Shown piece by piece: positions 1 to 53,100 of a stretch of DNA of 64,000 nt. Position numbers and translations under genes: made by a program. Source of the stretch: a virus; the IMG/VR virus record IMGVR_UViG_3300020478_001251, positions 1 through 64,000 of that record; one strand, 5' to 3'. The notes beneath the pieces were generated by a model. That model saw nothing but the letters and a program-made list of their open reading frames with translations, was not told the origin of the DNA and made no database searches. How positions within the stretch are numbered: the first letter of the stretch is position 1; each line of letters starts with the position of its first letter.

Positions 1-1
1 T

Positions 2-1078: not shown

Positions 1079-1079
1079 C

Positions 1080-4339: not shown

Positions 4340-4403
4340 CAAACACTCCAATTTTCTATACAATTTAGTATCATATATAAATATAAAAACTTCAAATAAA
4401 TCG

Positions 4404-6260: not shown

Positions 6261-6272
6261 TTTTTACCTCAC

Positions 6273-8230: not shown

Positions 8231-8245
8231 ATATATAAATATACT

Positions 8246-8530
8246 CTACTTACTAAATTTCTTCAAATATTTTAAAGCCTCATCAACATCTTGAACATCG
8301 GATGCTTTTTTAGCCTTTTCTATTTGTTTTTTAGTATTGGTTACCTTTCGTTTAAGATTACCAACTTCTTTTTTGTTAACTTTTTTCTTCTTTTCAAGAA
8401 TTTCAACCTCTTTTTCAAGAGTTTTTACTTCTTTATTCTTTACTTCTATCGCCTTATCTAACTTTTTGATTTCTTCTTTCTTCTTTCCACCAAAAAATAG
8501 ATTCATTATAAAATCAATGATTCCACTCAT
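8246..8530 (-). CDS. Lys-rich coiled-coil protein with short hydrophobic N-terminus (spanin-like candidate)
   Basis: MSGIIDFIMNLFFGG followed by a heptad-patterned Lys-rich region. Confidence 0.4.
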   Translation of the reverse strand: MSGIIDFIMNLFFGGKKKEEIKKLDKAIEVKNKEVKTLEKEVEILEKKKKVNKKEVGNLKRKVTNTKKQIEKAKKASDVQDVDEALKYLKKFSK

Positions 8531-8790
8531 TATTTATCTCCTTCACTCGGTAGTTTTATTCCAACATTATGACAAATTTCTTCTAATGATGTTTGGTTAA
8601 ATTCGTTATATTCTTCCAAATCCATCAATTTTTTTATAATTCGTTCATAAACCTTTGTTACACTTAAAGTATCATTACTTTGAATTTTTGAATGGTACTC
8701 AGCAGCAACATTACCAAGTTGTGCTACCATTCCCATTATCTCAATTATTAATTCTTCAGGTAGAAGCAATTTCCTGTTGTTCATCTTCAA
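8530..8790 (-). CDS. Hypothetical protein
   Basis: Coupled ORF in the minus-strand operon; no recognised motif. Confidence 0.5.
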   Translation of the reverse strand: MKMNNRKLLLPEELIIEIMGMVAQLGNVAAEYHSKIQSNDTLSVTKVYERIIKKLMDLEEYNEFNQTSLEEICHNVGIKLPSEGDK

Positions 8791-9325
8791 TGGCCTCCTC
8801 TAATGATTGTATATATTCACGAGCATCGTTCATTTGTTTATCAAATTGTTCTTTACCCATATCCCATTTCTCTTTTTCAAGTTCTGGATTATTAACTCCT
8901 ACTTGATTAAAAAATTCAGCCTTACCTTCTGTTTTTTCAAACTCATCAATACTTTGTTTTAAATCCTTTAAGTAAGCTTTTTTGTTTTCTAACATTTTAT
9001 TTCTTGCCCATTTGTCATATTCACCCTCTCCACTTACTCGAATTTTATTTTCATATTCTATTTGACAATCAAAACAATGACCCATTATTCTCCAAAACTT
9101 TGTATCAAGTTTTTTCTTCATTGCCTTTTTACATGATGGACAAAACCATGGCATTCTTACTGATGCCATAGTATCAGTTAAATGTGATTTTCTTGTTTTA
9201 CCACCAAGATTTTCTTGTTTACCTTCATATCCTACTTGAATATAATCCTTTTCATGTTCTTTACCACTCATTAAATCCTTGAGTGCCTTATTCTGTCTTT
9301 CTGATTCTTTACTATATCCTGCCAT
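8756..9325 (-). CDS. Hypothetical protein with CxxC...CxxC zinc-binding motif and coiled coil
   Basis: WFCPSC...HCFDC; GGAG Shine-Dalgarno upstream. Confidence 0.6.
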   Translation of the reverse strand: MAGYSKESERQNKALKDLMSGKEHEKDYIQVGYEGKQENLGGKTRKSHLTDTMASVRMPWFCPSCKKAMKKKLDTKFWRIMGHCFDCQIEYENKIRVSGEGEYDKWARNKMLENKKAYLKDLKQSIDEFEKTEGKAEFFNQVGVNNPELEKEKWDMGKEQFDKQMNDAREYIQSLEEAIEDEQQEIAST

Positions 9326-9333
9326 TGTAACTC

Positions 9334-14253: not shown

Positions 14254-14254
14254 T

Positions 14255-15268
14255 TTACCACTTCCTACATGACCAATAACGAGCCTTATGTCTCGGGCCT
14301 GGATTATCACAATTGTGTCGTGCTCTAAAAGACTTTCTTGCCTTTGGATTAGATTTTCTAATTCTCATAGTTTTATCTTTACCACCTGCCCCAAAATTAA
14401 CTTTAACTACATTACCAGCGGGATTTTTTACATATACTTTAAACTTTTTTACATCACCTTGCATTGGCTTACCAAGTTTTACTTTACGACCTTGATATTC
14501 AGCTTCATTTAATTCTTTAGTTCTAAGGTATTCAAAGGTATATCCATATCCTTTACCTTCTGATTCATAAAAGATTTCCATTTCTTCCTTTACACAATTA
14601 GGAACTTTTCTACCATTTTTATCTTTCATTCCATATTGTTTATATCCTACCCAACAAGCTTCGTTTGTTGTAGTTTTTACAGATTCTTTTTTAGATTTAT
14701 TACCCCAATTTTTTGCACCAACTTTTCTACATTTTACCAATGCACCACTAGCGTAAGCAGAAGGCCATACATCATAACGAGATTTTACTTTATGATAACA
14801 CGCATCTTTTTCACCAGCTGCCTCATCAAATTGAGCTTCCGTAATTGGTTTACCTACTAACTCTTCTAACTTCATTTTACTCTCCACTTTCGTTTTTACT
14901 CTAATGGGTGCTTTACCTTGTCCAGCAGATTTCTTACCACCACGATTAGCTTTATTTTGTGCTGCTCTTTTTCTACGAACTGCACTTGTTTTTTGTTTTT
15001 TACTCATACTACGAGCCTTTGATGCAGGAACACATTTAGCATACGCTTGTTTTTCACCACTTGTTCCACATTCAGGATGTTTACCACTTTTATCTTTCTT
15101 TCCGATATTCACCCATTTGTCTTTAAACCATTTTCTTAAATTTTCATTCGTAATATTATCGGCGATGAGTCTTTCTTGTAAGTCATTTTTAAGTCTCATC
15201 TTATCTCCTGATGACATTCTTAATCTTTTCTTTCCAATTTCTCTCGGTTCATCTATGTGAAATTCCAT
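14255..15268 (-). CDS. Array of small basic Cys-containing modules (DUF5872/DUF6321-like), putative internal head protein
   Basis: Modules LRKWFKDKWV..C, DACYHKVKSRYDVWPSAYASG..C, ACWVGYKQ..VPNCV and AEYQGRKV..RKSFRARHNC..ARYWSC, separated by TNE, ITE, FDE and LNE sites. DUF names recalled, not searched. Confidence 0.65.
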   Translation of the reverse strand: MEFHIDEPREIGKKRLRMSSGDKMRLKNDLQERLIADNITNENLRKWFKDKWVNIGKKDKSGKHPECGTSGEKQAYAKCVPASKARSMSKKQKTSAVRRKRAAQNKANRGGKKSAGQGKAPIRVKTKVESKMKLEELVGKPITEAQFDEAAGEKDACYHKVKSRYDVWPSAYASGALVKCRKVGAKNWGNKSKKESVKTTTNEACWVGYKQYGMKDKNGRKVPNCVKEEMEIFYESEGKGYGYTFEYLRTKELNEAEYQGRKVKLGKPMQGDVKKFKVYVKNPAGNVVKVNFGAGGKDKTMRIRKSNPKARKSFRARHNCDNPGPRHKARYWSCRKW

Positions 15269-15594
15269 TACTTATCACCCTTTTTCTTTGAATGTCTAAA
15301 CCAAAAATCTATGGTTTTTCCAAATGTTGCTATAAATGTCCCTAAAATAATATTTAATAAATCTCTATGTGTTTCATCTAATTCTAAAGTTGGATGAAAT
15401 AACAAATATAATACCCACCACAATAATCCAAACATACCACAAGTAATTGTAAATTGCATCCAATCTGGTAAACCATCTCCACCATAATAAACATCAACAT
15501 CAGTTACTTTTGGTTTTTTCTTTTCCTCACACTTCTTACATTTATGTGTTGTAGGTGTTGTACTTAATTTAATATCTTTTTTAATTTCAGCCAT
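15268..15594 (-). CDS. Two-TM membrane protein, holin candidate
   Basis: Two hydrophobic segments, IDFWF and a basic C-terminal tail; close to the endolysin. Confidence 0.55.
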   Translation of the reverse strand: MAEIKKDIKLSTTPTTHKCKKCEEKKKPKVTDVDVYYGGDGLPDWMQFTITCGMFGLLWWVLYLLFHPTLELDETHRDLLNIILGTFIATFGKTIDFWFRHSKKKGDK

Positions 15595-15597
15595 AAT

Positions 15598-15909
15598 TTA
15601 TCTCGGTGGTCTTAAATCCCAGGGCCCCCAATGTTCTGTTTGTAATAATTTTTTTGCCATTTCTAAATAAGTGTATTTATAAAGTTTATATGGTTTAACT
15701 GGTATCCCACCTAACTCATAATACTTCTTCTTATTCATTAGAACTTTTTTACCATTACTAAAATCTAATACTTGATTTCCTTTTTCAATCCAACAATGTC
15801 CAAAAGGTTTACCATCTGTTGCTAAGATTGCGACACCATGAACTAATTGGTAACCATCCTTACCAATCATCCATCTTCCATTTGCTGCGTAACAATCTCC
15901 TTTTGCCAT
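15598..15909 (-). CDS. Small transglutaminase/papain-like protein (Cys-His-Asp)
   Basis: GDCY...LVHG...GHCWIE...VLDFS spacing resembles minimal transglutaminase-like cores. Confidence 0.5.
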   Translation of the reverse strand: MAKGDCYAANGRWMIGKDGYQLVHGVAILATDGKPFGHCWIEKGNQVLDFSNGKKVLMNKKKYYELGGIPVKPYKLYKYTYLEMAKKLLQTEHWGPWDLRPPR

Positions 15910-15910
15910 T

Positions 15911-16204
15911 TTATTTTAATAATTTTACGACAGTACTTCCACCTGTTACTATTTTACTAATAGATATTGGATAGATTTCTCCTGCAATTAATCCTTTAGT
16001 AATAGTACCACCTTCTAATGCTGTAAAGGTATAATTACTTCCTTCATGTAAAATAAAAGCTTGGTTTTTAAATGAACCCGTTGGTTCATAAGTTGTACTT
16101 GCCCCTACTTCATGAATTGCTGTGAAAGTATTATCTCCTCTTAAATCACCTTTTGTTCTACTTACAAATGGTGCTTGATATCGTGTTACACTTGACCATG
16201 ACAT
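15911..16204 (-). CDS. Hypothetical beta-rich protein
   Basis: ORF with GGAG Shine-Dalgarno; no recognised motif. Confidence 0.5.
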   Translation of the reverse strand: MSWSSVTRYQAPFVSRTKGDLRGDNTFTAIHEVGASTTYEPTGSFKNQAFILHEGSNYTFTALEGGTITKGLIAGEIYPISISKIVTGGSTVVKLLK

Positions 16205-16215
16205 ATTTTATCTCC

Positions 16216-16698
16216 TTAAACTGATAATGCTCTTTTAAACCATCCGAACAAAAATCTTTCTTGTTCTGGTTTCTTGTTAACTAAATCGTAATAATGTTTC
16301 ATTCTATAACAACGAACTCTATCTATAGATGGTTTATAAGTTTCTAATGCACCTTTAGTGCCTGGTCCAAATCCACCATCAACTGCTAAATCCGCACCTT
16401 TACCATTACAAGCTCGTTGTAAAATTCTTACTGCTGTTCCTCTACCTTGATTAACACACATATCAAAAAAGATATGTTTTAATTGGTCATCAAGTTCATC
16501 AACTTTATTTTTATCCCAATAATCTCTTTTATAAATTTCTTTTGCACCCTCTTTAGTAAGGTTTTTAATATCTACATCTGGATAGAATCTTTTTGCTATT
16601 CCGTAATTAGTTTCACCACCTAAATCTTTTGGGTCGTGAACATATCCGCCTTCGTGATGTAGTGTTACTTCTATAATTTCATCAAAAGTAGTTAACAT
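16216..16698 (-). CDS. Endolysin, glycoside hydrolase family 108 with peptidoglycan-binding C-terminus
   Basis: HEGGYVHDPKDLGGETNYGI, YKRDYWD, FDMCVNQG, VDGGFGPGT, FLFGWFKR. Start reassigned to ATG 16698 (MLTTFDEII), which has an upstream GGAG. Confidence 0.92.
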   Translation of the reverse strand: MLTTFDEIIEVTLHHEGGYVHDPKDLGGETNYGIAKRFYPDVDIKNLTKEGAKEIYKRDYWDKNKVDELDDQLKHIFFDMCVNQGRGTAVRILQRACNGKGADLAVDGGFGPGTKGALETYKPSIDRVRCYRMKHYYDLVNKKPEQERFLFGWFKRALSV

Positions 16699-16699
16699 T

Positions 16700-17470
16700 T
16701 TATTTTCTCCCTTTATGTCTAAGTATGATTTGTTTTTCAACCCATTTTCTTCCAAGTGGGTTTTTGATAGGCATGTTAGCAAATTTTCTAACAACCTTAG
16801 TAACCAATGGTACAAATTTTGCCTCCGCTTCATCTTCGTCTAAATGTTTTGAATTATCAATTATGACGAAATTTCCTTTAAATAAATTCTGAAAAGCACC
16901 AATGTTCTTTTGAACATCAGTCCAACTTTTCTTTAATAATTGTGGTGGTAATACTCTATCTCTTTCTTGATTTCTTTTTTGTGCTACTTCTAATGATGTG
17001 TTAACCATTACCATATATGTATCGTATCCGTCTTCTTCTAACATTTTTTTCATAGTATGTATTTTACCGAAGTCGTGTCCTGTCCCATCAATAATCATAC
17101 CCAACTTACCTTGTTGGTATAATTTCATTCTCTGTTTAGTAAGAGATTTAGCAAAAGTTCTCAATCCACTATCTACATCTTGTGGTTTACTAACCATATC
17201 TTTTGATGTACCTGTTAACTGAGCAAAAACTTCATCTGGCATTTTATCTAAATCTGTTCCGAATCCATACTTGTGTAGTAAGAATTTAAGTTCTTTATCT
17301 GAGTTAACCATCTTCATACCACTCATAGAAATATTAAACTTCTCAGGTATACCAAATAGATTTTTTGCCACATAAGTTTTACCACTTCCAGGACCACCTG
17401 CAAGAAAAACGGCTTTGAAGATACCAGCATCTGCTATACCTTCTTGTAATAAATCTGACAACCTTATCAT
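16700..17470 (-). CDS. P-loop kinase (zeta-toxin/AAA_33/PNK-like) with capsid-targeting-like N-terminus
   Basis: FLAGGPGSGKT, VNSD, IIDGTG and lid motif RNQERDR; begins MIRLSDLLQE/G. Confidence 0.8.
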   Translation of the reverse strand: MIRLSDLLQEGIADAGIFKAVFLAGGPGSGKTYVAKNLFGIPEKFNISMSGMKMVNSDKELKFLLHKYGFGTDLDKMPDEVFAQLTGTSKDMVSKPQDVDSGLRTFAKSLTKQRMKLYQQGKLGMIIDGTGHDFGKIHTMKKMLEEDGYDTYMVMVNTSLEVAQKRNQERDRVLPPQLLKKSWTDVQKNIGAFQNLFKGNFVIIDNSKHLDEDEAEAKFVPLVTKVVRKFANMPIKNPLGRKWVEKQIILRHKGRK

Positions 17471-17754
17471 TATTCTACTTCTGGTAAGTCATCTATCGGT
17501 TCTATTTCTACTATTTCTTCTACTATTTCTTCGGCTTGTAGGGCATCTACTATAGCCTGATTTTTAGCGTGGATTTCACGGCGTTTTTCCGCTTCTTCGT
17601 TTTCAGAACCACATGGTTCAAACCATACCATATCATGTGTTTCTATTTTTTGACCACAATGTCCTTCTCCACAATCCTCACTACAAGCATCTGGATGGAC
17701 TTCGAAAAAATCATCATCAGCTAAGTTTTTTTCCCATGTTGTTAATTCTGACAT
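17470..17754 (-). CDS. Small acidic Cys/His-containing hypothetical protein
   Basis: GGAG Shine-Dalgarno and upstream promoter-like motif; ACSEDCGEGHC. Confidence 0.5.
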   Translation of the reverse strand: MSELTTWEKNLADDDFFEVHPDACSEDCGEGHCGQKIETHDMVWFEPCGSENEEAEKRREIHAKNQAIVDALQAEEIVEEIVEIEPIDDLPEVE

Positions 17755-17801
17755 AATATTCTCCAGTTAATTTAAAGTCTTATACACTTATAAATATAAA
17801 A

Positions 17802-18209
17802 CTACCAAGTTTTAGTTCGCAATCTCCTACGACCTTCTAAACCTTTTTTCCAACAAAAGCCATGATTTCTATACATTTTATTACGATATATTGGTATTTC
17901 GGTTTTACCAAGTAAATAATATGCTTGAATCCTATGATGTCCATCCATTATTTGATTCTTATTATTTACAAATATAGGTAATTCAATACCTTGATTGATT
18001 ATAGATTGAAAATATAATACTAAAGATTTGTTAGTATTTTCACCAACACACTCACAAACTGGTCCTTCTGATTTTTTTCTTGGTGTATTTAGTTCTTCTA
18101 TATCATTTACAAAATTATGTTTACCGCCATTGAAACTTACAAAGTCTTCAATATTTAATAAATCAAATTCTTGTGGAAACAATTTAAGAAAAAAATCTGT
18201 TTCACTCAT
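17802..18209 (-). CDS. ParB/sulfiredoxin-like domain protein
   Basis: PIFV...IMDGHHRIQA motif. Confidence 0.7.
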   Translation of the reverse strand: MSETDFFLKLFPQEFDLLNIEDFVSFNGGKHNFVNDIEELNTPRKKSEGPVCECVGENTNKSLVLYFQSIINQGIELPIFVNNKNQIMDGHHRIQAYYLLGKTEIPIYRNKMYRNHGFCWKKGLEGRRRLRTKTW

Positions 18210-18310
18210 TTGTAAATAAACGGGTCTCGTTTTCTAAGTTCTTTAAGTTTTTTCTTTAACTTTCTTTTTTGTTTCCAATCTTGAAACCATTTTTTTATTG
18301 TTTTAAACAT
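18206..18310 (-). CDS. 34-aa basic peptide
   Basis: Manual translation MFKTIKKWFQDWKQKRKLKKKLKELRKRDPFIYK; fills the gap exactly and overlaps both neighbours. Confidence 0.65.
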   Translation of the reverse strand: MFKTIKKWFQDWKQKRKLKKKLKELRKRDPFIYK

Positions 18311-18980
18311 TATGTTCTTTACTCCTTGCTATAACTATACCTTGTTCTTTACTATGTAAAATTTTATGTAAGTTATATTCTGTTTCTAAACTATCTATAA
18401 ATTTTTTTAACTCATAATCTTTATGTGGCCACAAATAATCATGAAATACTAAATAACCATCAGGTTTTAAAAAATTTTTATAAATTAAAAAATCTGTTAA
18501 TATAGCTTCATAACTATGAAACCCATCAATAAATAACATATCAACTTTTTTACCATCTAAAAGTTTTGCAAGTTTATATATTGATGATGGTTCGTATGAT
18601 TTATTATGTATAAATCTACTTTTATAAATATCAACTTTATTATTATAAAATTTATGTAAATTATCATTAAAAGTGCGAATTCTATTAAAATCTTTTTCTA
18701 TAGTAATAACCATATCAAAAAAATATCTAAATATAAAATGTGTACTTCCAAAGTATCCCAAACCTATTTCTAAAATTATATCTCGTTCATTGACATTATT
18801 GTGTATATAATTTATAAACTCAAAAATTTCTTCTTCATTTTGTTGTATGGCTTGTGTTGGATATACTAATCCATCAACTGAATTTGCTACCATCTTTTCT
18901 TCATTAATAAAATCCACAACACCTTTATCAGATAACCAAAGTCTTAAATCATTTATTATTTTTTCTTTTCTATTTTTCAC
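18303..18980 (-). CDS. Class I SAM methyltransferase (Methyltransf_24-like)
   Basis: ILEIGLGYFGST, DMLFIDGFHSYE, LKPDGYLVFHD. Confidence 0.85.
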   Translation of the reverse strand: MKNRKEKIINDLRLWLSDKGVVDFINEEKMVANSVDGLVYPTQAIQQNEEEIFEFINYIHNNVNERDIILEIGLGYFGSTHFIFRYFFDMVITIEKDFNRIRTFNDNLHKFYNNKVDIYKSRFIHNKSYEPSSIYKLAKLLDGKKVDMLFIDGFHSYEAILTDFLIYKNFLKPDGYLVFHDYLWPHKDYELKKFIDSLETEYNLHKILHSKEQGIVIARSKEHNV

Positions 18981-19740
18981 TTATTACCTCTATTATTCTA
19001 TCAGCAACAATCTCATGTGCTTCTGGTGTTAAATGTGAATCCATGTATTCACCATTAGTTAAATGTTCAAAAGTTTGTTTATTATGAGATGCCCAATTAC
19101 CAAGTGAATGTGGTGAAGCTTTTGATTCAAATTTTATCAAATTAGGAACATCAACTATTGTTTCACAATGTTCCCAAGTAATCCAATATATTTCTTTTCT
19201 CATATTACTAAATAAATCAACATATTGTGCAATTTTTTTCTGAGCCTGTTCTTCATTATAAATTAACTCTAAATATTCTTTATACATATCAGCCAATTTT
19301 ACCATTTTTGGTTCATTATTAAAAGGTGTATTCTGATATTCGTATGAATTTAAATTATAAAATTTTTCCATCAATTCAAACCACCAAAGAACTCTTGTCT
19401 TTAATGTAAGTTGAACTACAAGTTTATCATAGTTATATAAATTTTCATAAAGAACATCAAAAATATTTTCATTTGAATTACAAGATAGAGCAAGATTATC
19501 CACTTGACACTTTAATTTTTTACCAATTAATGTAGAAAATTTATGTTCATCTCTATATTGTTTATATAATATACCTCTCTCCATAGATAAATCTTTTAAA
19601 TCAATTTCTAAATTAGGATGGGTTGTTCTTATATTCCATTTCTCATCAATTAAGTTGTGTTTTAATGCATAAGTATTCCATTCAAAAGAATCCAATCCAC
19701 CACCCTCAGTAAAACTACAACCAAAAAATCCTATCTTCAT
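18970..19740 (-). CDS. SGNH/GDSL-like acyl hydrolase or transferase
   Basis: FFGCSFTEG at the N-terminus and DSHLTPEAH at the C-terminus. Confidence 0.7.
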   Translation of the reverse strand: MKIGFFGCSFTEGGGLDSFEWNTYALKHNLIDEKWNIRTTHPNLEIDLKDLSMERGILYKQYRDEHKFSTLIGKKLKCQVDNLALSCNSNENIFDVLYENLYNYDKLVVQLTLKTRVLWWFELMEKFYNLNSYEYQNTPFNNEPKMVKLADMYKEYLELIYNEEQAQKKIAQYVDLFSNMRKEIYWITWEHCETIVDVPNLIKFESKASPHSLGNWASHNKQTFEHLTNGEYMDSHLTPEAHEIVADRIIEVISEK

Positions 19741-20240
19741 GAATCTCTCCTACTTAATATTGGATTAGTTACTGGCCAATCTATTTTTAACATTGGGTCA
19801 TTCCATTTAACTGATATTTGGTCTTTCCAATCTACATAATCATCTGGATAAGATTGTGTATAATGAAATAAACATTCATCACTTAAACATAAATGTCCAT
19901 TTAAAAATCCTGGTGGAACTAAAACACTTTTATGATTTCTATCAGATATTAAAAAAGTATCATATTCTAAATAATTTTCACTTTCTTCTCTAAAATCTAC
20001 TACAACTAAATATATTTCTCCCCAAACACAACTAATATGTTTCCAAGTTACATCATCTCCATGCAAACCACGAAGAACATTTTTTCTTGAACGAGTAAAC
20101 TTAGAAATTTTTTCTGTTGGTGTATCCATTGATTGTTCCCAAAATGTCCACATTTCACCTCTAAACTCATGGTGTGGTTCAGGAACATAAACTTTTACTT
20201 CTGGTAAAGTTATTGAACTACTTTCTTTATATTTAAACAT
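19737..20240 (-). CDS. rmlC: dTDP-4-dehydrorhamnose 3,5-epimerase family
   Basis: SRKNVLRGLH, VVVDFRE.S, VLVPPGFLNGH, WNDP..IDWP, PILSRRD. Confidence 0.9.
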   Translation of the reverse strand: MFKYKESSSITLPEVKVYVPEPHHEFRGEMWTFWEQSMDTPTEKISKFTRSRKNVLRGLHGDDVTWKHISCVWGEIYLVVVDFREESENYLEYDTFLISDRNHKSVLVPPGFLNGHLCLSDECLFHYTQSYPDDYVDWKDQISVKWNDPMLKIDWPVTNPILSRRDS

Positions 20241-42648: not shown

Positions 42649-43689
42649 TTAATCAAATGGATTATCGTTACTTCCCTTATTGTGTACCAAGAATGTTTTA
42701 CCAAAATATACATCCAATGGTTCTACATCAATCTGAACTACTTCGAATCCATCTTCACTTTGAACCTTTTCTAAACTTGTAATTAAAACTTCATTTCCAT
42801 TCTTATCCATTAAATGTCCACCAGTCAACATATTTGGAACTAAATTCCACATCCAAGTATTTTCACCAACTGGTTTATATAACATTTCATGTTCACCTGT
42901 AATTCTCTCTTCTCCGTTATTTATATTCCAATAACTTTGAACAAAATCAAAATTAATATCTTGAATACTGGCCGAATGTATTGTAAATGATTCTGTTTTT
43001 TCATCTGGAAACCTACAACTTCTCCAATCATCATTATCTTCATCTAACTGACCTGGCATTTCCATTGATTTTATCCACTCTCCAATATTCAACTCTTCAA
43101 CCTTTTTATATGAACCATCTGCCATTTCTATTTTTGTTCCCTCTAATAAACAACTTGGTGAACCACCATAACTATCAACAATAGTTACAGCCTTTGTTCT
43201 TGAAGTATTATAATTAGTTGCATGGTCATTATACCCATCAGTTTGTCCATCTTCTTTAAACTTAACACTAACATTCATACTAATATTATTTGTTCCTGCG
43301 GGAAACCAATCACTATCATCACCTGTGCCAGTATTTGCATTTGATATTGCAGCGGCTGCAAACGAACCTGTAGCTCCTTGATTGGTAAGTGTTGCACCAG
43401 AAGTACTTAAACTCCATTCAAAGTTACTTGTTCCTTTTCCAATCTTATCATTAAACTTAGAACCTTTACCAGTAAAACCTAACACATAAGTTTCTGTAGT
43501 ACTTTCCCAAACATAATTATACCCAGTCAAACTATCAACTGATGTGATTGAAAAATCACTCATTTTAGTTGTAGTTGGACTTCCACCAGCTTCAGATAAT
43601 GAAGTTCGTGTGGTATAATTAGAACGAGAACCACTCACGGCTCTTCCTAATTTTCCTAATGATAATATTTGTGCTGCTGTTGTTGCCAT
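42649..43689 (-). CDS. Ser/Thr-rich putative virion protein with C-terminal Hint domain
   Basis: Hint from Cys at 43152 (CLLEGTKIEMADG), block B TGEH, ending IDVEP..FLVHN followed by KGSNDNPFD. Confidence 0.85.
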   Translation of the reverse strand: MATTAAQILSLGKLGRAVSGSRSNYTTRTSLSEAGGSPTTTKMSDFSITSVDSLTGYNYVWESTTETYVLGFTGKGSKFNDKIGKGTSNFEWSLSTSGATLTNQGATGSFAAAAISNANTGTGDDSDWFPAGTNNISMNVSVKFKEDGQTDGYNDHATNYNTSRTKAVTIVDSYGGSPSCLLEGTKIEMADGSYKKVEELNIGEWIKSMEMPGQLDEDNDDWRSCRFPDEKTESFTIHSASIQDINFDFVQSYWNINNGEERITGEHEMLYKPVGENTWMWNLVPNMLTGGHLMDKNGNEVLITSLEKVQSEDGFEVVQIDVEPLDVYFGKTFLVHNKGSNDNPFD

Positions 43690-43717
43690 AATATTTCCTA
43701 TGTTACACTTATAAATA

Positions 43718-44872
43718 TCACTCGTTATACATTCTTAACATTTTTTCAACCCACTCTTCTTTATTTCCATAATGTTTATCTAAATACTCTCGTAATGGAA
43801 AAACATAATCTCTTCTACCATCAATTGATAAATCACAAATCTTTTTATGTTGTTCATGAAATTCTTCAAGTGTTCCTGCTCTAAATGGATAATCATAACT
43901 TGGTATCCAATCGTGAGCTAATATTGGTATTTTACCATAATCTAATGCCTGAAATATACTATACCCAAATGGTTCATAAATATGTGCTGAATGTGATATT
44001 CCCCAATCTCTTTTCATAAATTTATCTTGATTATCATAATTAAAATTATAAACTTTCCAACCATCTCGATTTAAATCACAATTTCTTTGCCACCACAAAA
44101 TATCTTTTCCCTTAGTGTGTAATATAGAATCTAATCCTTGCATAAAATGTGGACATTTTCTTGTTTCCATTCTTGAAGCAAATCCAACTTGATTACTATC
44201 ATTTACATCAAGATTATTTTTAAACTCATAAAAATTTGGAATATGTTCTACAGGATGTTTTAATTCTCTTTCGTTAACACCAATCCAAAATGGATGTTTA
44301 GCAAGTTTACATAAATCATCTTCCCACTTCTGTTCCATATAAAAATGAAAAGAATTTCTTAAATCAAGAATCATTCCTGATTTTAATACATCGGCAACTG
44401 AAACATGAATTGCATTACTATGTATTTTATGTTTATTTTCTACAATATATTTATGTGGTGCATAATAACCATGTAAAATATTTATTCTTCGAGCATTACC
44501 CAATAATTCTTTAAATTTTGTTGTATCATCACCTTGCCAATGATGTTCCAAATCATCTTTTAATATTTGTCTATAATCTTTTTTAGGTTTATCTTTTGTT
44601 TTTTCAACTACTTTATTAAATGTTTTTTCAATTTTTTTCTGTACTTGTCTACCAGTATTTCCACCTCTACCAACTTTTACACTATTCTCAAAAGTTTTCT
44701 TTTGTTCCTCTGTTTGTGGTTTACTCGGTTTATTTCTATGTATAAGTAACTTAGGTTTTACATCTAACTTTGGTGCAATTTCTTCTATCCAATGGTTAAC
44801 CCAAACATCAGCTCCACCACCAACCATACCAGCACCACCTGTTGAATAATAAACATCATATTCTTCTGACAT
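43718..44872 (-). CDS. GT-B glycosyltransferase (GT4-like)
   Basis: GGGADVWV, IPNFY, FASR...K, YEPFGYSIFQALDYGKIPI. Confidence 0.75.
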   Translation of the reverse strand: MSEEYDVYYSTGGAGMVGGGADVWVNHWIEEIAPKLDVKPKLLIHRNKPSKPQTEEQKKTFENSVKVGRGGNTGRQVQKKIEKTFNKVVEKTKDKPKKDYRQILKDDLEHHWQGDDTTKFKELLGNARRINILHGYYAPHKYIVENKHKIHSNAIHVSVADVLKSGMILDLRNSFHFYMEQKWEDDLCKLAKHPFWIGVNERELKHPVEHIPNFYEFKNNLDVNDSNQVGFASRMETRKCPHFMQGLDSILHTKGKDILWWQRNCDLNRDGWKVYNFNYDNQDKFMKRDWGISHSAHIYEPFGYSIFQALDYGKIPILAHDWIPSYDYPFRAGTLEEFHEQHKKICDLSIDGRRDYVFPLREYLDKHYGNKEEWVEKMLRMYNE

Positions 44873-44926
44873 TATAACTCCTTTAATATAAATATAAAAT
44901 TAAATCCTCTTAATGTTAATTATTTA

Positions 44927-47900
44927 TTAAGGTGCTTTTCCTGCATTATGAACAGCAATAGCATTATCACCAAGTTTTACAAAATAAGTATTATTATCCT
45001 CAACATCTAACTTAACAAACAACGCTTCAGATTCAGTATAATTTATCGTTTTAATACTCACAAGTTCTTTATTTGAATTAACTAATTTATCAGTATATTT
45101 ATCTAACGACTTAGCCCTTACCCAACAATATTTAGGTGTAGCTTCTGTAATATTTCCATCATTATTTAATGATAAATCTCTATACACTAAGAATGGATGT
45201 TCATATGTTGATTTTATACTATTATCATTTTCATCAATTATTTCATAATGGTCATAATAATAATCTTGTCCATTAAATACTGCATCTGAATCTGTTATTG
45301 ATGCACCCGCAATTGAACCTGTTGACCAAAAACCATAATCACCAAAATTATCACTATTTGGTAAACCATCAATATTCATAGATTTTAATGAATCTGTTAA
45401 TGTTACATCTTCAATATTTTTCCAAGTTCCATCATTCATCCATACTTTAGTTCCTAATGCAAAACAAGTTGTACCAGTACCACCTGATTCATCAAATACA
45501 TTAACATTTACTTTCACTGCTTTCTTATTCAATCCAGCAGTTTCAGAGTTGTAAAATGCTTTAATAACATAATTCTCTTCAATAGTACCTTCAGCAGTAA
45601 TTCCTGTCTCCATACCCAAAGCAACAAAAGCTTTTGAATTATCATCGGTCATATCACCACCAACCCAAAGTTTAATTGTATCTAATGCAGATACTTCATT
45701 TGAAATGGCACCTGAGAATCCACTATATGCTTCTGTAGTTGCAGTTTGATTTTGTAATTTAACTCTTAAAGTTGTTGTACCATCCGTACTAACTGCACCA
45801 GCCGAACCTGTTCTTCCAATATTCAAATGCATTTTCATACCAGAACCAGCAGTTCCTGGGAAATTATTATTACTTGTATCATTAATGTGAAAATATACTT
45901 CGACATCATCTGTTCCAGAAAGTTCACCCGATTCCACACTCGTTCCACCTATCCACCAAATTTCATCACCTTGTCCTTGATATCCTGAAATGTTAACATC
46001 ATATGGATATGTTAATGGTGTTCCAGGAACTCTCCATACCAACGCATCATTTGCACTGACAGTGAATGAATGATTATTTGCAAGATTTCCACTTGTTGAA
46101 CTTGGATAACCACCATATTTACAATAAATTGTCCAACTACCAGGTTCTAATGATACAGAACTAAATGTAAATGGTCCTGTTCCTGTGGTAGTTCCTAAGT
46201 TTTTCCAACTTGAACCATTATAAGCTCCAAAATAAAGTGTGGCATCATTATTGACTGTAATAGTTCCACTATTTACAGCTCCACCAAATTGATTTACACC
46301 ATTTCTTGAATTCCTAACATTCGCTCCATTAGTATAACTACCATTTGTTACTGAAGTTACAGATTTTCCAGTTGAATTTGCCGCTAATGCAGAATATCCA
46401 CCATTATTCCATTCAAACCCAACTGCATCATTAATAGAACTATTTCTTGTCCAAGTAAACGCTACAGTCTTTGTTGTTGCTTTACCGGTTATTGTAACCG
46501 ACCTATCATTATTTGCACCATATGTATAATCAGCTAAATCACCTATGGAACTAACCGAGGCACCCGTTGTAGTTTGTGAAGAAGCTAAACTTGATATTGC
46601 ATCTGGTGGTATTGCCAGTTCATCGTAATATTCATCAATCCCACCATCTGCACCTATTTTCATCACATCATTATTATATGCACTCAAACCACTATTCCAT
46701 TGATAGTTATGATAATATTGATTAGCACCATCTGTAATAGCAACTGACCCATCTGCCATAAGTTTATAAACTTCAGTTCCATCACCAACAGGGTCATTAA
46801 GGTCTCCATAAATTCTACAATCACTTCCAGCTGCACCACCTCCTGTTGTATCATTAAATGCACCTTCTGGTGTAGAATAACCACCAGACCATTTTCCTGT
46901 AGAACTATTACAGGATTGATAAGTAGTCAATGTGTTTGGATGGTTTAAACTAACAGAAGTGGTAAATAAAACTGGTGAAACAGTCGGGTCATTAGTTGTA
47001 TCATGATTTTGAAATGTAAAACGAACTTTAGCTGTTGTTGTTCCAGTTCCTACAGCGGCATCTACATATCCTAAATTTATAACCTCATCAACAATTTCAC
47101 GCTCAGTTGTATGACTATCATCTATATTAGAAAGTGTAACTGATGTTGTATTACCAGTCGAAGTAGAATAACCGACTGTATTACTACCATCAGATAAATC
47201 TATCACTACATTCATGGCAGAAGCACCAAGTTGTCTAAATCCTTGATATGTAAAATCCTCGACCACTAATTGGTCTGATTCTACACCAACTTTTAAACTT
47301 GTTTTGTTTAAACTCATCGCACTTATCGCAGGATAATGATACAATGCAATTCCAACTGCTGTTGCAGATGTTGTATCAGAATCAGAACCACCCTCACAAG
47401 TAATATCAAGTGTTACTGTCCCAGTTCCTGCAGTTCCTGTTGCCGTTAATAATGCCGTAGATGTAGATGCATCACTAATTGACCAAACGGCAGTATTATC
47501 ACTATAAGCATAAGTAACAACATTATCTGTTGCATTTGTTGGTGAATTAAAATGTAATGTTGTATCTGTACTATTATTTAAAGTAGTTCTAAATATTGTG
47601 GCTGGTGCACTAATTACATTTTTACTATTAGTTGCATCTGGATAAAGTTGATATCGAGCTGATGCATTTGCAGTTCCAGATTCATCCGAAGTAGATGCAC
47701 CACCATTATCATCAACATAAGAATTATCATTATATGGCACCATTCTATAATAATAATTTGTAGTGTTTGTAGAATGACCATCAAGTGTAATAGAAGTACC
47801 TGTAGTTGTTTTACCACTAACATTTCCCCAAGTGACATCATCGGAAGACCTTTGTAGTTGGTAATATGCCGCATATGTACTTGCATTAAAACTTACAGAT

Positions 47901-50179
47901 TTACCAGCAACATATCCACTTCCCTCGGCCGTAGTCCAAGCACCAGTAGTAGTTGGAGCTTTATCAATTATTGTAATATCTTGTAAAGCGGAAGTTCTTG
48001 TTTGTGGTAGATTATTTGGTGCCGAACCTTCAAAATCAAAAACCATAATATCATATAAACCACACTTAGCTGCAGATAATGCAGGTGTGGTGATTGCATA
48101 GTTATTATCAGTATCCGTATTATCAGAAGTCATTGCCACAGTCGCAAGTTTTGTTGTATCACTATGGTCGTAAAAATCTTCATCATCGACAGATGCAAAT
48201 CCTAAACATATATCTCCCTTTGCTACATTCTTAGATTGCCAATCTATTCTAAGTGTATTTGATGCACCTCTTCTCACAACACGACTACTTACCCATCCAC
48301 CACCACCAACCGATGTTGATAGTGCTCCAAAAGATTGTGCCCCAAGTAATGTTACATTAATTGCGACTGTGGCTTGTGTTGATGTTGTACCATTTCCACT
48401 TGCTGTTACACCAAATGTTTTTGAACCAGCAGTTGTTCCTGAAAAATTTCCAGCCAAAGTATTATCCGTTTCACTTGAATCTGAAAATCCAGATGGTATT
48501 GTCCATGTAAATCCATTTGTTGAAATTGTATCACCCGCGGCAGTTGCAGTAAATGATAATGAAGTGGCACTAATTCCTGTTGGTGTAAGTCCAGTACTAT
48601 ATGTATTTGCAAACCCTACCGCCGATGTTAACGAACTATCTTCAACTAAACTTACAGTCGGTCTGACTGTTAATGTATCTGTTTGGTTGTTTGTTTGTGA
48701 ATAATTCGATGTTCCAGCAAAACTAATTGTATAAACTCCATTTGCAGAACCTGGTGTCATTGTGGCACTATTCGTTCCACTGCCAATATTTGGACTTGAA
48801 GTAATAGCAACACTTGCACCATTTCCAGCCGAAACTGATGCCACAAAAGCTTGAGTATTATTTATATCAATTGTTGTATTTCCTGTAGTTGAATAAGTTA
48901 AAGTTGGTGCAACTGAAATACCAGAACCTGCAGTTAAATTTTGGTCTCCACCAGTAAGATAATACGCTTTTGGATAATATGTAGTAAGACCTGTACCTGT
49001 AGCAGTTAATGATGTAGATGTATTACTCCAAGTAGATGCTGAATATAATGAATTAACGAGTCCTGCAGTATAATCTGTAAAGGTTGTATTAGAATTAGAT
49101 GTTCCCCAACCAACTCTTAGAGCGACAGAACCACCACTATTATCAGCACCTTTAGAAACTGCATTCATTGTTACTGAATCACCAGCATTAAATGTTCCAT
49201 CACCAATTGCAGCAACATCATCCCACGACCTTGTATAAGGAACATCTACAATTGCCGTACTCGTTGTTGTATTTCTTGTATTTGGATTATTAACATCTCC
49301 ACTATCTGGATATCCATAATGTGTAGTTGTAAATGTCATTTTACCTGGAGTATTTAAAACTTGTATTCCACCCTCTACCAAATTTAAATGATATATATTA
49401 CCACCATCTCCGTTCACATTAATAGCCCTTGAAACAGATGATGAAAATTGTGTACCCGTTGTTACGGCCGTGGCATAACTTAATGTTCCATTACCTGATG
49501 GCCCAATATATTGGTCTGATTCTGAAACAAATGTTTGATATGTTGCTCCAGCACCCGCCGATTGAATATTAGTAGTTCCATGTCCAGATATAGAATCACG
49601 ATATCTGAATTTAGTATCTGCAAAATTTGAATTATAACTCGAATCATCATCAGCAACTTTAAATTTTAGTGTTGCACCATCTTGTGTTCCTGGAGTAATT
49701 CCTAAAGATACACCTACATATGCCGTTCCACTACCATCTGTATCATCTGCATCAGTATGAGCAGGTGAAACAGAAGAACCCGCATCAGTAACAACTTCAA
49801 ATTCAGCTGTATTTACTATACCTGAATTATCAATTGCTAACATCACAAGAGTTTCACCCTCTACCATTGTAGAGTTAGCATCATTGGCCGCATTACCATC
49901 TAATTGATTTGAACCAACACTACCTCGATATAATACAAAACTTTCAAATGTACCTGGATAATCCGCACTATAAAAATGTGATATCCTATCTTCATCCGCA
50001 CCTAATAATGTTCTTAAAGTTGATGAAGCTGTTGGTGAATTACTTAAAACGGCAGCATTTGCAAATGCATCTGAAAAACTATCTAATGACATATCAGAAC
50101 CAGAAGTTACTGATGATGTTTCGTTCTGGTTCTTATATAAATCCGAAAATTTTATCTCACCACTACTTGTTATTGCCAT
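44927..50179 (-). CDS. Large Ser/Thr/Gly-rich fibre/adhesin-like virion protein with C-terminal Hint domain
   Basis: Ig/FN3-like beta-rich body; Hint from Cys at 45466 (CFALGTKVWMNDG), TYEH, LDVED..AVHN followed by AGKAP. Confidence 0.82.
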   Translation of the reverse strand: MAITSSGEIKFSDLYKNQNETSSVTSGSDMSLDSFSDAFANAAVLSNSPTASSTLRTLLGADEDRISHFYSADYPGTFESFVLYRGSVGSNQLDGNAANDANSTMVEGETLVMLAIDNSGIVNTAEFEVVTDAGSSVSPAHTDADDTDGSGTAYVGVSLGITPGTQDGATLKFKVADDDSSYNSNFADTKFRYRDSISGHGTTNIQSAGAGATYQTFVSESDQYIGPSGNGTLSYATAVTTGTQFSSSVSRAINVNGDGGNIYHLNLVEGGIQVLNTPGKMTFTTTHYGYPDSGDVNNPNTRNTTTSTAIVDVPYTRSWDDVAAIGDGTFNAGDSVTMNAVSKGADNSGGSVALRVGWGTSNSNTTFTDYTAGLVNSLYSASTWSNTSTSLTATGTGLTTYYPKAYYLTGGDQNLTAGSGISVAPTLTYSTTGNTTIDINNTQAFVASVSAGNGASVAITSSPNIGSGTNSATMTPGSANGVYTISFAGTSNYSQTNNQTDTLTVRPTVSLVEDSSLTSAVGFANTYSTGLTPTGISATSLSFTATAAGDTISTNGFTWTIPSGFSDSSETDNTLAGNFSGTTAGSKTFGVTASGNGTTSTQATVAINVTLLGAQSFGALSTSVGGGGWVSSRVVRRGASNTLRIDWQSKNVAKGDICLGFASVDDEDFYDHSDTTKLATVAMTSDNTDTDNNYAITTPALSAAKCGLYDIMVFDFEGSAPNNLPQTRTSALQDITIIDKAPTTTGAWTTAEGSGYVAGKSVSFNASTYAAYYQLQRSSDDVTWGNVSGKTTTGTSITLDGHSTNTTNYYYRMVPYNDNSYVDDNGGASTSDESGTANASARYQLYPDATNSKNVISAPATIFRTTLNNSTDTTLHFNSPTNATDNVVTYAYSDNTAVWSISDASTSTALLTATGTAGTGTVTLDITCEGGSDSDTTSATAVGIALYHYPAISAMSLNKTSLKVGVESDQLVVEDFTYQGFRQLGASAMNVVIDLSDGSNTVGYSTSTGNTTSVTLSNIDDSHTTEREIVDEVINLGYVDAAVGTGTTTAKVRFTFQNHDTTNDPTVSPVLFTTSVSLNHPNTLTTYQSCNSSTGKWSGGYSTPEGAFNDTTGGGAAGSDCRIYGDLNDPVGDGTEVYKLMADGSVAITDGANQYYHNYQWNSGLSAYNNDVMKIGADGGIDEYYDELAIPPDAISSLASSQTTTGASVSSIGDLADYTYGANNDRSVTITGKATTKTVAFTWTRNSSINDAVGFEWNNGGYSALAANSTGKSVTSVTNGSYTNGANVRNSRNGVNQFGGAVNSGTITVNNDATLYFGAYNGSSWKNLGTTTGTGPFTFSSVSLEPGSWTIYCKYGGYPSSTSGNLANNHSFTVSANDALVWRVPGTPLTYPYDVNISGYQGQGDEIWWIGGTSVESGELSGTDDVEVYFHINDTSNNNFPGTAGSGMKMHLNIGRTGSAGAVSTDGTTTLRVKLQNQTATTEAYSGFSGAISNEVSALDTIKLWVGGDMTDDNSKAFVALGMETGITAEGTIEENYVIKAFYNSETAGLNKKAVKVNVNVFDESGGTGTTCFALGTKVWMNDGTWKNIEDVTLTDSLKSMNIDGLPNSDNFGDYGFWSTGSIAGASITDSDAVFNGQDYYYDHYEIIDENDNSIKSTYEHPFLVYRDLSLNNDGNITEATPKYCWVRAKSLDKYTDKLVNSNKELVSIKTINYTESEALFVKLDVEDNNTYFVKLGDNAIAVHNAGKAP

Positions 50180-53100
50180 CTAACTTCTCCACTTTAGATT
50201 GCAATTCCTTAATTTGAATTTGTTGTTCTTTAATGGCCTCTACTAATAGTGGTACAACCTTTTCATAATAAACTCTTTTACCAGTTAATTCCTCATCATC
50301 ATCATTAAGTAGATATCCCTCTTTGACCAACACTTCCAATCCATCAACTTTTTCTACCTCTTGTGCAATAAACCCAACATCATGACCTCTTTCATTAAAA
50401 TCGTCTTTCCAATCAAACTCAACACCTCTTAATTTTTGAACTTTAAGTAATGCATTTTCTATAGGTCTAACATTTTCTTTAAATTTTATATCTGATATTG
50501 TCGATGAATATCCAATAATATCACCATCTGCATGAAAATCTCCAGAATCTGTCATTGCAAAATCAACTGCTCCAGCAGTATAGAATCTCATACCACCAGC
50601 TCCAGTTCCTATAGATTGAATTGAATCATTACCAGTACCATAATTACCAGTATGGTCTAACATTACCGCACCAAAATTTCCAGTATAAGCTTTGACTTTT
50701 CCAGTACCAGAGTAATCCAATGTTATATCACTACCAATGACCGTTTTCTTACTCATCGAACCAAGTTCTGATATTGAAATAGAACCAGTTGTATGAACTG
50801 CTCCCATAATATCAACCGTCTTATCTTCATCAGGAGTCATACGGAAATATTTATTATCCGAATTTTCCAAAGTAGCATTTGTTAAGAATACTGCCTGTAT
50901 TCCTTTTGGTGTAACCTCTACTTTTTTATTACTTGGTGAATGAGCCATTGTTTCGATTTTAGAATATTGCTCTGTAACAGATAAACCTGCAGAAGCATTT
51001 TTTCCAGTACTTGAATGTTGATATTCTTCTCTCAAATTATTATTAGTAAATACAATATCATAAATTACCCAAGTATAATCATCTAAATCATTTGCGACAG
51101 TATGGTTATAACTTCTTGTAATAGTTCTTTTAAATGTATTAGCATAATACGGGCCTCCACCACTACCTGTAAAATCATCAGGTATAAAATCTGTAAAGAA
51201 ATTACCACTATGTGATTCAATCGAATCTGAAATAACTGCCCAAGCACCACCACTTACTGATTTATATAAAGCAGTTTTACAAGTATAACTAACATCACCC
51301 AAACTCATCCAGTTTGTAGTAGTGGTATCTAATACATTCATAGATTTTATTTGACACCATAATGCCCAACCAGCCTCACTCTTATAAACTGCATCTGTTA
51401 AATCTGCAGAGTATGTTCCAAAATTTGTTGTAGATGGTGAATTTCCAACCGAACTTTCAACATTGGCATAAACACTACTTTCTCCAGTATGTCCTGTAAA
51501 TCCACCTGCAATCCAAGATTTACTACTTGAATCACCATTATCTAAATCTGGAGTTTGTGTTTGTGTTTGTGTTCCAGTCCATCCTTGTGTAACACTATTA
51601 TATGCCAAACCACCAGCCTTCAATATAGAAGCTGCCGCTGTGAATGATGGAACAATTTCAGCTATATAGTTTCCATCCTTTAATGTGATATTTGGACTTG
51701 CACCACCATCAATTACAATTGAACTATCTGCATCTCTTATTTTACTACCATCAATATTCCAACCTGAACCTGTACTTTGACCAAAGAAACCTGAAGTTGC
51801 TGATATATCTCCTGCAAAAACCGCATCTTCAGCCGTCATAATACCACCATCTCGTAGTGAGAATTTTGGTGTAGCTATACCAAGTTGGAAATTATCACCT
51901 GTACTACCAATATTTTTCTTCTGCATAAATCTTACATATTCCGAACCACTTCTCATAGAAAATTCACCACTACCACTAATGAATACTCCCTCAATATCTG
52001 CCATTGAAGTTCTATTACCACCTGGACCTACTGATATATAACCACTATCAGCAGATGATGCTGTAAATGTTGCTGTATTTATAGCTAAATTATCTGTTAC
52101 GATATTAATACTTGATGGTGTTCCAGAAATATAATTAGTACTTCCACCCCATTTAAACGCCGAAGTAGAATCTATATAAGCATAATTGTTTGAATCAACA
52201 TATAATCCATCATTATTACCACTAACATTAATACCAAATTTACTACTACCTGCAGTGACTGTTCCATCTGGAATTGTTAATCCATCTGAATTCATACGAA
52301 CTCGGACAGTAGTACCATCCATCAATCTCATACCTAAAGCATCTATCTGAATATGTTCCGTTGCAGTTGGACCAAATGAAGATGTTGTAGCAGTAATACT
52401 TACGGCTGTGTTACTTGCATCACCAGCATGAATTGCAAAACCAGTACTTGATTGATTTGTAAAAAATGTATTAGTATTACCATAAGATTTAACACCACTT
52501 GAACTAATAACGACTGTATTTGTATCATCACTATCAGCACCACCTAATGTTAAAACACCATTCTTTTGTTCACTTATTATAGTTCCATCTTCATCATAAT
52601 ATCGAGTTGAAGTAGAATCAATAATAATTCTATCCCTTGTATTATCATTAAAAGATACAGTCCCACCATAAATTGTAGAATTTGCACCAAAGGTTGATAA
52701 AACTGAACTTGCGTTTTTTATATCAATTGAATCGGTATCAATGTGGACATGTTGACCAGAAGTTGGACCAAGTGTAATTAAATTATCTGCAAATGAAGCT
52801 GAAATTTGTGTTCCTCTTCTAAGTTGAATACCAGCATCAGAATCAACATACACATTACGATTTGTAGATGTAGTTTGTCCAATCGTCATATCAGTACCAT
52901 AACTTGCTAATGTTGCATTACCAGCGGCATTCTTCAAATCCATACCAGCAGAAGATAATACAACTTGTGTTTGCATTGATTGTGAAAATTGATTTAAATA
53001 TGAACCACTAATACTACCACTAATATCTGCATCCGTTGGTATTCCTGTTCCACCAGTTATATTAATTGTTCCCTCAACTTCTAATGTACTTCCATTCCAT

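Follow-up and report, generated by a model that had tools for sequence, protein, structure and literature searches.

The closest described relatives of the elements reported here are Hint domains of the BIL type. BIL domains that lack a nucleophile at +1, the first residue after the domain, yield mostly cleaved products, as stated in the consulted part of one account (PMC7664689). BIL2, from the BUBL1 polyubiquitin-like locus of Tetrahymena thermophila (Protein Data Bank (PDB) 6Y75 and 6TMM), is described in the excerpted text of its report as joining the C-terminus of the N-terminal flank to a lysine epsilon-amine in an isopeptide bond, and as able to pass this flank to other proteins (PMC8616854). 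In the Hedgehog/Hog proteins (1AT0), the thioester used for transfer is formed at the end of the N-terminal part by a C-terminal Hint. Here, two proteins that end in a Hint domain, P0001 and P0003, were analyzed in a 64,000-nucleotide (nt) stretch of viral DNA (positions 1 to 64,000 of IMG/VR record IMGVR_UViG_3300020478_001251), referred to below as the window. The gene between them, P0002, encodes a predicted glycosyltransferase. We propose, with a probability of roughly one half, that both proteins carry a fixed, vertically inherited BIL-type Hint end module, which would excise itself via a thioester and hand the acyl group to a lysine in its own short tail. The features of the window point to an undescribed way of finishing the tail proteins of a large marine phage.

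Both C-terminal ends had been described in a sequence-only reading of this DNA as Hint domains with Cys1, TxxH, a block-F Asp and a terminal His-Asn, and the translations and the fold test bear this out. P0001 reads ...DSYGGSPS, C180 LLEGTKIEMADGS, T264-G-E-H267, VVQID321VE, FLVH336N337 and then KGSNDNPFD; P0003 reads ...ESGGTGTT, C1572 FALGTKVWMNDGT, TYEH, VKLDVE, AIAVH1744N1745 and then AGKAP. The translations agree with that reading also on the +1 residue (Lys in P0001, Ala in P0003) and on the 9 or 5 residues after His-Asn, and its Hint start at 45466 coincides exactly with the Cys1572 codon of P0003. No homing endonuclease is present, as it had stated; the Hint parts of 158 and 174 residues are of mini-intein size and leave no room for one. 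Its term "fiber-like" suits P0003, with 1750 amino acids (aa), but not the 346-aa P0001, which is modeled with a helix and a beta-sandwich before the Hint. The segment FTIH238 was considered as block B of P0001 and rejected: H238 is not conserved, and block B is T264xxH267.

The C-terminal Hints of P0001 and P0003 are homologous to each other at 27% identity (E 2e-10), with similarity extending about 45 residues upstream of Cys1. No third copy was detected by Hint profile in the six-frame open reading frames (ORFs) of the window or of the whole 83-kb record. In Pfam, P0001 and P0003 stay below threshold for every Hint family (best 14.9–18.9 bits against cut-offs of 27.7–35.8); the P0003 end gives sub-threshold matches to Hom_end_hint, Intein_splicing and PT-HINT. 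The curated Pfam models miss this Hint subfamily, and fold testing was needed because the Pfam matches were only sub-threshold. The Hint part of P0001 is matched (E 1.6e-7) by PHROG 38766, whose label is virion structural protein.

The AlphaFold2 model of P0001 was built on 35 family sequences and has a mean predicted local distance difference test (pLDDT) score of 80.6, with the tail at low confidence (pLDDT 33). The model carries a Hint fold, with 58 PDB matches at E ≤ 0.001, nearly all of them to Hint domains. In the Foldseek search against the PDB, BIL2 (6y75, E 6e-10) ranks first and the C. thermocellum BIL (2lwy, E 5e-8) second, followed by many mini-inteins, and Hedgehog (1at0) is far weaker at E 5.7e-4. 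A profile of 20 members of the wider Hint class found BIL2 at E 8.6e-13, the C. thermocellum BIL 2lwy at 1.1e-11, the best intein at about 1e-6 and Hedgehog at 0.019. In structure and profile alike, the nearest solved relatives are BIL domains, closer than inteins or Hedgehog. A single-sequence PDB search with the P0001 Hint part was of no use, its sole result being Ataxin AXH at E 0.024. The N-terminal part of P0001 found no named relative, its best ESM Atlas score of 0.78 being below lead level. The best non-BIL profile match (E 2.6e-7) is PDB 8w20/8w22, a 1368-aa "Intein C-terminal splicing domain-containing protein" with a Hint at 1079–1222.

Every type-A BIL feature tested is present at this locus: Cys1 with TxxH, His-Asn, no Cys, Ser or Thr at +1 in the window, no endonuclease and a distribution that is not sporadic. 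In these features the P0001 and P0003 Hints appear to resemble BIL domains; for the type-specific sequence motifs of Amitai et al. 2003, the C. thermocellum BIL as second-best profile match serves as a proxy only. Type-A BILs such as that of C. thermocellum (2LWY) share with the phage Hints Cys1, block B, His-Asn, the absence of a +1 nucleophile and of an endonuclease, and variable non-housekeeping hosts (PMC7765530 and PMC7664689, in the parts consulted), but they lie in bacterial proteins with sizeable flanks. Relative to the type-A description in those parts, the phage Hints add an obligate tail lysine, an extreme C-terminal position on fibers and an insert after block A. BIL2 is the best structural and profile match and also has Cys1 and a terminal Asn; unlike the phage Hints, it is eukaryotic and lies between ubiquitin-like domains, with its acceptor lysine in a folded C-terminal domain or in other proteins. 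The window Hints sit on virion proteins, have tails of 5–9 residues and would use a reaction that we infer from this likeness. The ubiquitin-like domains before BIL2 have a flexible Gly-rich end ahead of Cys1, as do the phage Hint proteins. The class insert after block A has the form G-L/M-x-D-E...W (P0001 residues 211–222: MPGQLDEDNDDW) and is lacking in BIL2 and mini-inteins in the profile alignment; from its sequence it could be a marker of this Hint subfamily.

Other self-processing systems fit less well. The two window Hints do not correspond to canonical class 1 inteins, given Lys or Ala at +1 and only 9 or 5 residues past the Hint. The Hedgehog Hint lacks His-Asn. Hedgehog also needs a sterol-recognition region after the Hint, according to the excerpt consulted (PMC7765530), whereas neither window Hint is followed by an adduct- or sterol-recognition region. 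Pretoxin-HINT (PF07591) is likewise a non-mobile processing Hint, with sub-threshold Pfam matches in 14 of 20 class members, but it releases a C-terminal toxin domain, and no toxin domain lies behind either window Hint. Peptidase_S74, known from endosialidases and tail fibers, is a self-removing C-terminal module that is common on phage fibers according to the part of the tail-fiber atlas consulted (PMC12143355). Neither its fold nor its chemistry is related to that of the Hints: it works through a Ser-Lys dyad as a trimeric chaperone, and the fiber end that it leaves is a plain carboxylate.

At E ≤ 0.001, 332 proteins of similar length are homologous to P0001; the best 120 are 57–99% identical and lie on contigs of up to 202 kb. 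When these are aligned with P0001, C180, T264, H267 and H336 are kept in 121 of 121 sequences, N337 and K338 in 120 of 121, and the tail residues G339, S340, P344 and F345 are nearly invariant. Mean column conservation is 0.83–0.89 in the Hint part, compared with 0.62–0.77 in the N-terminal part. A divergent set of 68 distinct sequences, 29–76% identical to P0001 (median 34%), has only 25 columns conserved at 97% or more. C180, H267, H336, N337 and K338 are each found in all 68; T264 is Thr in 66 and Ser in 2, and block-F D321 (64 Asp, 4 Asn) falls just under the 97% cut-off. Conserved columns of the N-terminal part run from L9 S10 L11 L14 A17 to N154 H156 D172 Y174. By these alignments, both Hint junctions of P0001 and the lysine that follows are under strict selection. 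The N-terminal helix motif L9 S10 L11 .. L14 .. A17 (window 43660–43689) is invariant in the P0001 family, and I-K-F-S-D-L, the motif with which P0003 starts (50150–50179), is similar; the two proteins may share an element for virion attachment.

The Hint is internal in 60 of 80 relatives, where 27 to 145 residues follow it (at least 97 in 59). The C-terminal part is down to 6–21 residues in the remaining 20, this lineage included. Where it is about 100 aa long, this part resembles a fibronectin-type domain by eye, and the P0001 tail KGSNDNPFD is homologous to its start in most relatives. P0001 is therefore a shortened form of a conserved myovirus protein composed of an N-domain, the Hint, a lysine and a C-terminal domain of about 100 aa. 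Among 80 loci found via the neighboring glycosyltransferase gene, the Hint lies at the same site in all 80, and there is no Hint-less allele among them.

The lysine was also examined in a wider class. With both window domains, an exhaustive profile search yielded 2265 representative proteins at E ≤ 0.001; the analysis covered the best 150. These hold 89 full-span domains: 67 terminal (1–21 residues after His-Asn), 17 internal and 5 without His-Asn, which is thus kept in 84 of 89. The host proteins are 151 to 2000 residues long and usually have a Gly-rich linker before Cys1, with Gly at −1 in 34 of 65 members. At +1, the terminal members have Lys (23), Ala (11), Ser (7), Val (6), Thr (3) and no Cys, so Ser or Thr occurs in only 10 of the 67 tails. 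Lysine is present in 67 of 67 tails, compared with 13.7 ± 3.2 among same-length pieces of the same proteins (maximum 26 in 5000 draws), and makes up 14.3% of tail residues versus 3.3% elsewhere. The first tail Lys stands anywhere from +1 to +11, and the eight one-residue tails are all K. The 67 tails include P0003 itself (P0124) and one P0001 orthologue (P0027). All tails of P0003 counterparts in related phages, namely AGKGGP, GKGE, VHDK, AKD and EVGK, contain Lys as well. Tandem Hints joined by 2–4 residues (HN-IPPK-C, HN-LPP-C, HN-NP-C) occur in P0192, P0196, P0200, P0251, P0243 and P0187.

Among 50,697 deposited phage records, tblastn with each Hint end matched only phage NCTB (LT598654), and megablast of window bases 1–20000 gave no match. 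NCTB encodes three Hint-ended proteins in its tail-fiber cluster, annotated only as "intein domain" and with the tails AVMVAKK, APVDQKH and KVD. A structure search against predicted viral proteins likewise returned the NCTB proteins first, followed by many fibronectin type III (fn3), collagen and "Hint domain containing" proteins of uncultured phages. One NCTB gene (L001:7083–7544) encodes a free-standing 153-aa Hint-like protein ending HN-KVD and directly follows a collagen-repeat tail protein with its own Hint end.

We infer every chemical step of the proposed route, while the fold, the residues, their conservation, the obligate lysine and the gene pairing come from computation. After folding, Cys1 would attack the preceding bond (Ser179-Cys180 in P0001; Thr1571-Cys1572 in P0003), and this N-to-S acyl shift would give a thioester end. 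Normal splicing would be blocked, as Cys, Ser and Thr are absent from +1. The acyl group would then most likely be taken by the side-chain amine of the tail lysine (K338 in P0001; K1748 in AGKAP of P0003), as in BIL2, and cyclization of the terminal Asn would release the Hint. The product would be a virion protein without the Hint, its last carbonyl capped by its own short tail via a lysine isopeptide. Capture by the tail lysine is the route that best fits the conserved Asn and a lysine which is always present, though at no fixed position, on a short flexible tail. His-Asn and Lys would be kept even before single-residue tails because the cap route needs them, a pattern that plain hydrolysis leaves unexplained. 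Removable C-terminal modules are usual at this locus, with Peptidase_S74 on the upstream fiber and S74 or C1q-like ends on counterparts elsewhere.

The gene between the two Hint proteins had been called a glycosyltransferase, and the model of P0002 supports this with a predicted GT-B fold. P0002 has no Pfam glycosyltransferase match even at E ≤ 1 and so belongs to none of these curated families. Its model has moderate confidence (pLDDT 68), and nearly all matches listed for it are GT-B glycosyltransferases. In the PDB, Foldseek finds 7fga best (E 7.7e-7) and the T4 alpha-glucosyltransferase AGT (1xv5) at 3.8e-5, with a template modeling (TM) score of about 0.5; TarM, HMW1C and GtfA are also matched. 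An ESM Atlas look-up agrees with the assignment, and the motifs GGGADVW and EPFGYSIFQA resemble GT4/GT5 motifs.

P0002 relatives were used to retrieve 303 confirmed loci, of which the best 80, down to 38% identity, were kept. The next ORF is a P0001-like protein with a Hint ending His-Asn-Lys in all 80 (KG in 76), beginning −61 to +179 nt from the glycosyltransferase. A reverse search with the P0001-like protein gave 294 loci, of which the best 80 were kept and 4 left out for too little upstream DNA. All 62 loci with enough upstream sequence have the glycosyltransferase directly before the P0001-like gene, and the 14 shorter ones all have part of it, which gives 76 of 76 in total. The two sets overlap partly, and all loci come from related myoviruses. 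In all 11 close viral contigs, the glycosyltransferase is followed by P0001 and this by the methyltransferase, either immediately or one gene later, and a second Hint-ended protein of 361 to 1724 residues lies upstream of the glycosyltransferase in 7 of 11. Of the 80 loci, 16 have such a second protein; a glycosyltransferase flanked by two Hints is therefore characteristic of this lineage and not of the pair. The pair is followed either by a methyltransferase and GT7 island or by a small ORF with tail sheath, tube and baseplate genes behind it, and in one locus (L034) both flanks differ. The pairing concerns the P0001 family only, not P0003. It is more likely that P0002 glycosylates P0001 or a neighboring Ser/Thr-rich virion protein than that it supplies a nucleophile.

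Several points weigh against transfer to the tail lysine. Cleavage itself is assumed by analogy with known Hint chemistry, and the lysine could serve as a charge, a general base or a recognition signal. In P0003, as in many class members, the Lys stands elsewhere than at +1, and the tail geometry is poorly modeled. The search profile, built from the two window domains, took in the tail columns and could slightly favor Lys, and part of the gene pairing may stem from a gene order that is conserved in a single group of phages. A single-lysine cap is also without obvious use. Finally, A-type BILs mainly cleave and do not ligate, as stated in the consulted parts of two papers (PMC7765530, PMC7664689). 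This last point speaks for plain self-cleavage, in which the thioester is hydrolyzed, Asn cyclizes and a free carboxylate remains; the Hint would then be a disposable cap or folding aid, an S74 counterpart, and the lysine would aid catalysis or solubility. The S74 domains of the upstream fiber and of counterparts elsewhere agree with this, as does a C-terminal part so dispensable that 20 of 80 relatives keep only 6–21 residues. We nevertheless consider it possible but rather unlikely. It leaves unexplained the obligate lysine (67/67 tails; 68/68 at +1 in the divergent P0001 set), above all in single-residue K tails, and the retention of His-Asn where just 1–9 residues come after. Hint domains are not known to act as trimerization chaperones, which counts against a role as folding aid.

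The sequence-only reading had suggested that the thioester serves for coupling to a glycan or another product of the adjoining island, and the present data do not support this. With Lys at +1 invariant in the P0001 family and present in every short tail of the class, the acceptor looks built in. In its broader form, the thioester would be captured in trans by an outside nucleophile, either a glycan or small molecule made by the island or the glycosyltransferase, or a lysine of another virion subunit. BIL2 does conjugate its N-terminal flank to lysines of other proteins (PMC8616854, consulted in part). The flexible Gly/Ser/Thr linkers before Cys1, with Gly often at −1, the strict glycosyltransferase pairing and the adjoining glycan island are also in keeping with such a capture. 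However, a lysine of the same chain beside the active site should outcompete outside nucleophiles, and the 5–9 residues after the Hint hold nothing like the adduct-recognition region of Hedgehog. The pairing persists where tail sheath and tube genes replace the island, and it involves only one of the two Hint proteins. In NCTB, the only counter-example examined for this proximity, no gene is annotated as a glycosyltransferase within 12 kb of the three Hint proteins. Capture in trans is therefore doubtful.

Two further explanations were weighed. The Hint might stay unprocessed on the virion as a structural or receptor-binding tip, a reading to which the PHROG label lends itself; it is very improbable, as strict conservation of exactly the catalytic residues at 29–76% identity is hard to explain if the domain is inert. 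Mini-intein size and motifs would suit decaying remnants of mobile inteins that lost the endonuclease and the +1 nucleophile, but this can hardly be correct: no relative examined lacks the Hint or has it at another site, its conservation exceeds that of the host part, and it lies at the very end of proteins instead of in a conserved enzyme site. The earlier view of a dedicated maturation device and not a parasite is upheld by the same site in all 80 loci, the invariant catalytic residues, the missing endonuclease and BILs as nearest relatives.

Transfer to the tail lysine, if true, would have several consequences. Lys-directed Hint transfer is so far known from a single ciliate protein and would be widespread in phages, given the 2265 representatives. 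It would add a second kind of self-removing fiber end beside the S74 chaperone, and small modules some 160 residues long, bounded by a leading cysteine and a trailing lysine, would be usable for protein capping or ligation. From the strict glycosyltransferase pairing, abundant myoviruses of marine and fresh waters seem to share a conserved step of virion protein modification that has gone unstudied. A bolder and improbable extension is that phages run an enzyme-free, ubiquitin-like conjugation, in which the Hint-activated Gly/Ser-rich end would be joined to the tail lysine and also to lysines or amino sugars on other virion parts during assembly, welding or decorating the particle.

In full-text literature searches, no paper was found on Hint domains at the ends of phage fiber or tail proteins. 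The consulted portions of the phiCbK (PMC3556154) and CBB (PMC5259590) papers mention only terminase and reductase inteins, and those of a jumbo-phage overview (PMC7824862) and the PaBG paper (PMC7412058) do not mention the NCTB Hint proteins; annotations of these proteins could stand in the supplements of the NCTB, PaBG and jumbo-phage papers. The consulted text of the tail-fiber atlas (PMC12143355) has no occurrence of intein, Hint or hedgehog. The phage end module (flexible linker, Hint and lysine tail), its obligate lysine and its glycosyltransferase pairing were thus not found in print.

The window lies within an 83-kb record of a large uncultured phage, with a CheckV completeness of 29%, and encodes a T4-type terminase, portal and head protease. 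All window genes are on the minus strand, where the order is the 3544-aa fiber, P0003, P0002, P0001, the methyltransferase, two GT7 glycosyltransferases, a radical-SAM enzyme and further sugar genes. The coordinates are given in Table 1. The Peptidase_S74 domain of the 3544-aa fiber scores 54.2 bits against a Pfam cut-off of 22 and belongs to the family. With this S74 end and the Hint ends of P0003 and P0001, three consecutive virion genes would therefore have self-processing ends (S74, Hint, Hint). A longer C-terminal part hidden by a missed frame was ruled out, since the next genes begin only 17 nt and 54 nt past the stop codons of P0001 and P0003, respectively. Ser and Thr account for 25.5% of P0003 residues and for 20–25% of residues across the putative P0002 substrates.

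Table 1. Positions in the window of the two Hint-ended proteins, their parts and the adjacent genes.
Feature	Position	Strand	Basis
P0001, 346-aa virion-type protein: N-terminal helix and beta-sandwich, Hint, 9-residue tail	42649–43689	-	ORF, translation
P0001 residues 1–179, part expected to remain after processing, C-end ...DSYGGSPS	43153–43689	-	Secondary structure of model
P0001 Hint (BIL-like), residues 180–337: C180, T264xxH267, D321, H336-N337	42679–43152	-	Foldseek, conservation
P0001 tail KGSNDNPFD, K338 invariant	42652–42678	-	Alignments
P0002, 384 aa, GT-B-fold glycosyltransferase-like, upstream partner of P0001 family	43718–44872	-	Model, Foldseek, gene pairing
P0003, 1750-aa Ser/Thr-rich fiber-like protein	44927–50179	-	ORF, translation
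P0003 Hint (BIL-like), residues 1572–1745: C1572, TYEH, LDVE, H1744-N1745	44945–45466	-	Hint profile E 2.2e-59
P0003 tail AGKAP, Lys at +3	44930–44944	-	Translation
Peptidase_S74 at C-terminus of upstream 3544-aa fiber	50346–50495	-	PF13884, residues 3435–3484
3544-aa fiber gene, directly upstream of P0003	50163–60797	-	Ends in Peptidase_S74
Methyltransferase, first gene of glycan island, directly downstream of P0001	41909–42631	-	Pfam Methyltransf_24, E 4.3e-11

In related phages, the P0003 position is taken by proteins of 235 to 1750 aa that may or may not end in a Hint; some have S74 or C1q-like ends or fn3 domains inside. Two of them (L006:4789–8784 and L008:4576–8787) share only the first 550–600 residues or so and have fn3 domains and no Hint end, so the C-terminal part of this fiber is exchangeable. 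Another counterpart (L011:7738–8982, identical to L084:4760–6004) matches the Hint profile over the second half only and has VHSET at its end, with Asn replaced by Ser; it may be a decayed copy. Two further Hint arrangements were seen in the glycan islands of relatives. The first, a 719-aa protein (L012:15757–17916), has its Hint inside, with about 200 residues behind it. The other is a 313-aa protein with a Hint at 16–167 ending His-Asn-Ser, followed by a second Hint-like half (L007:13264–14205).

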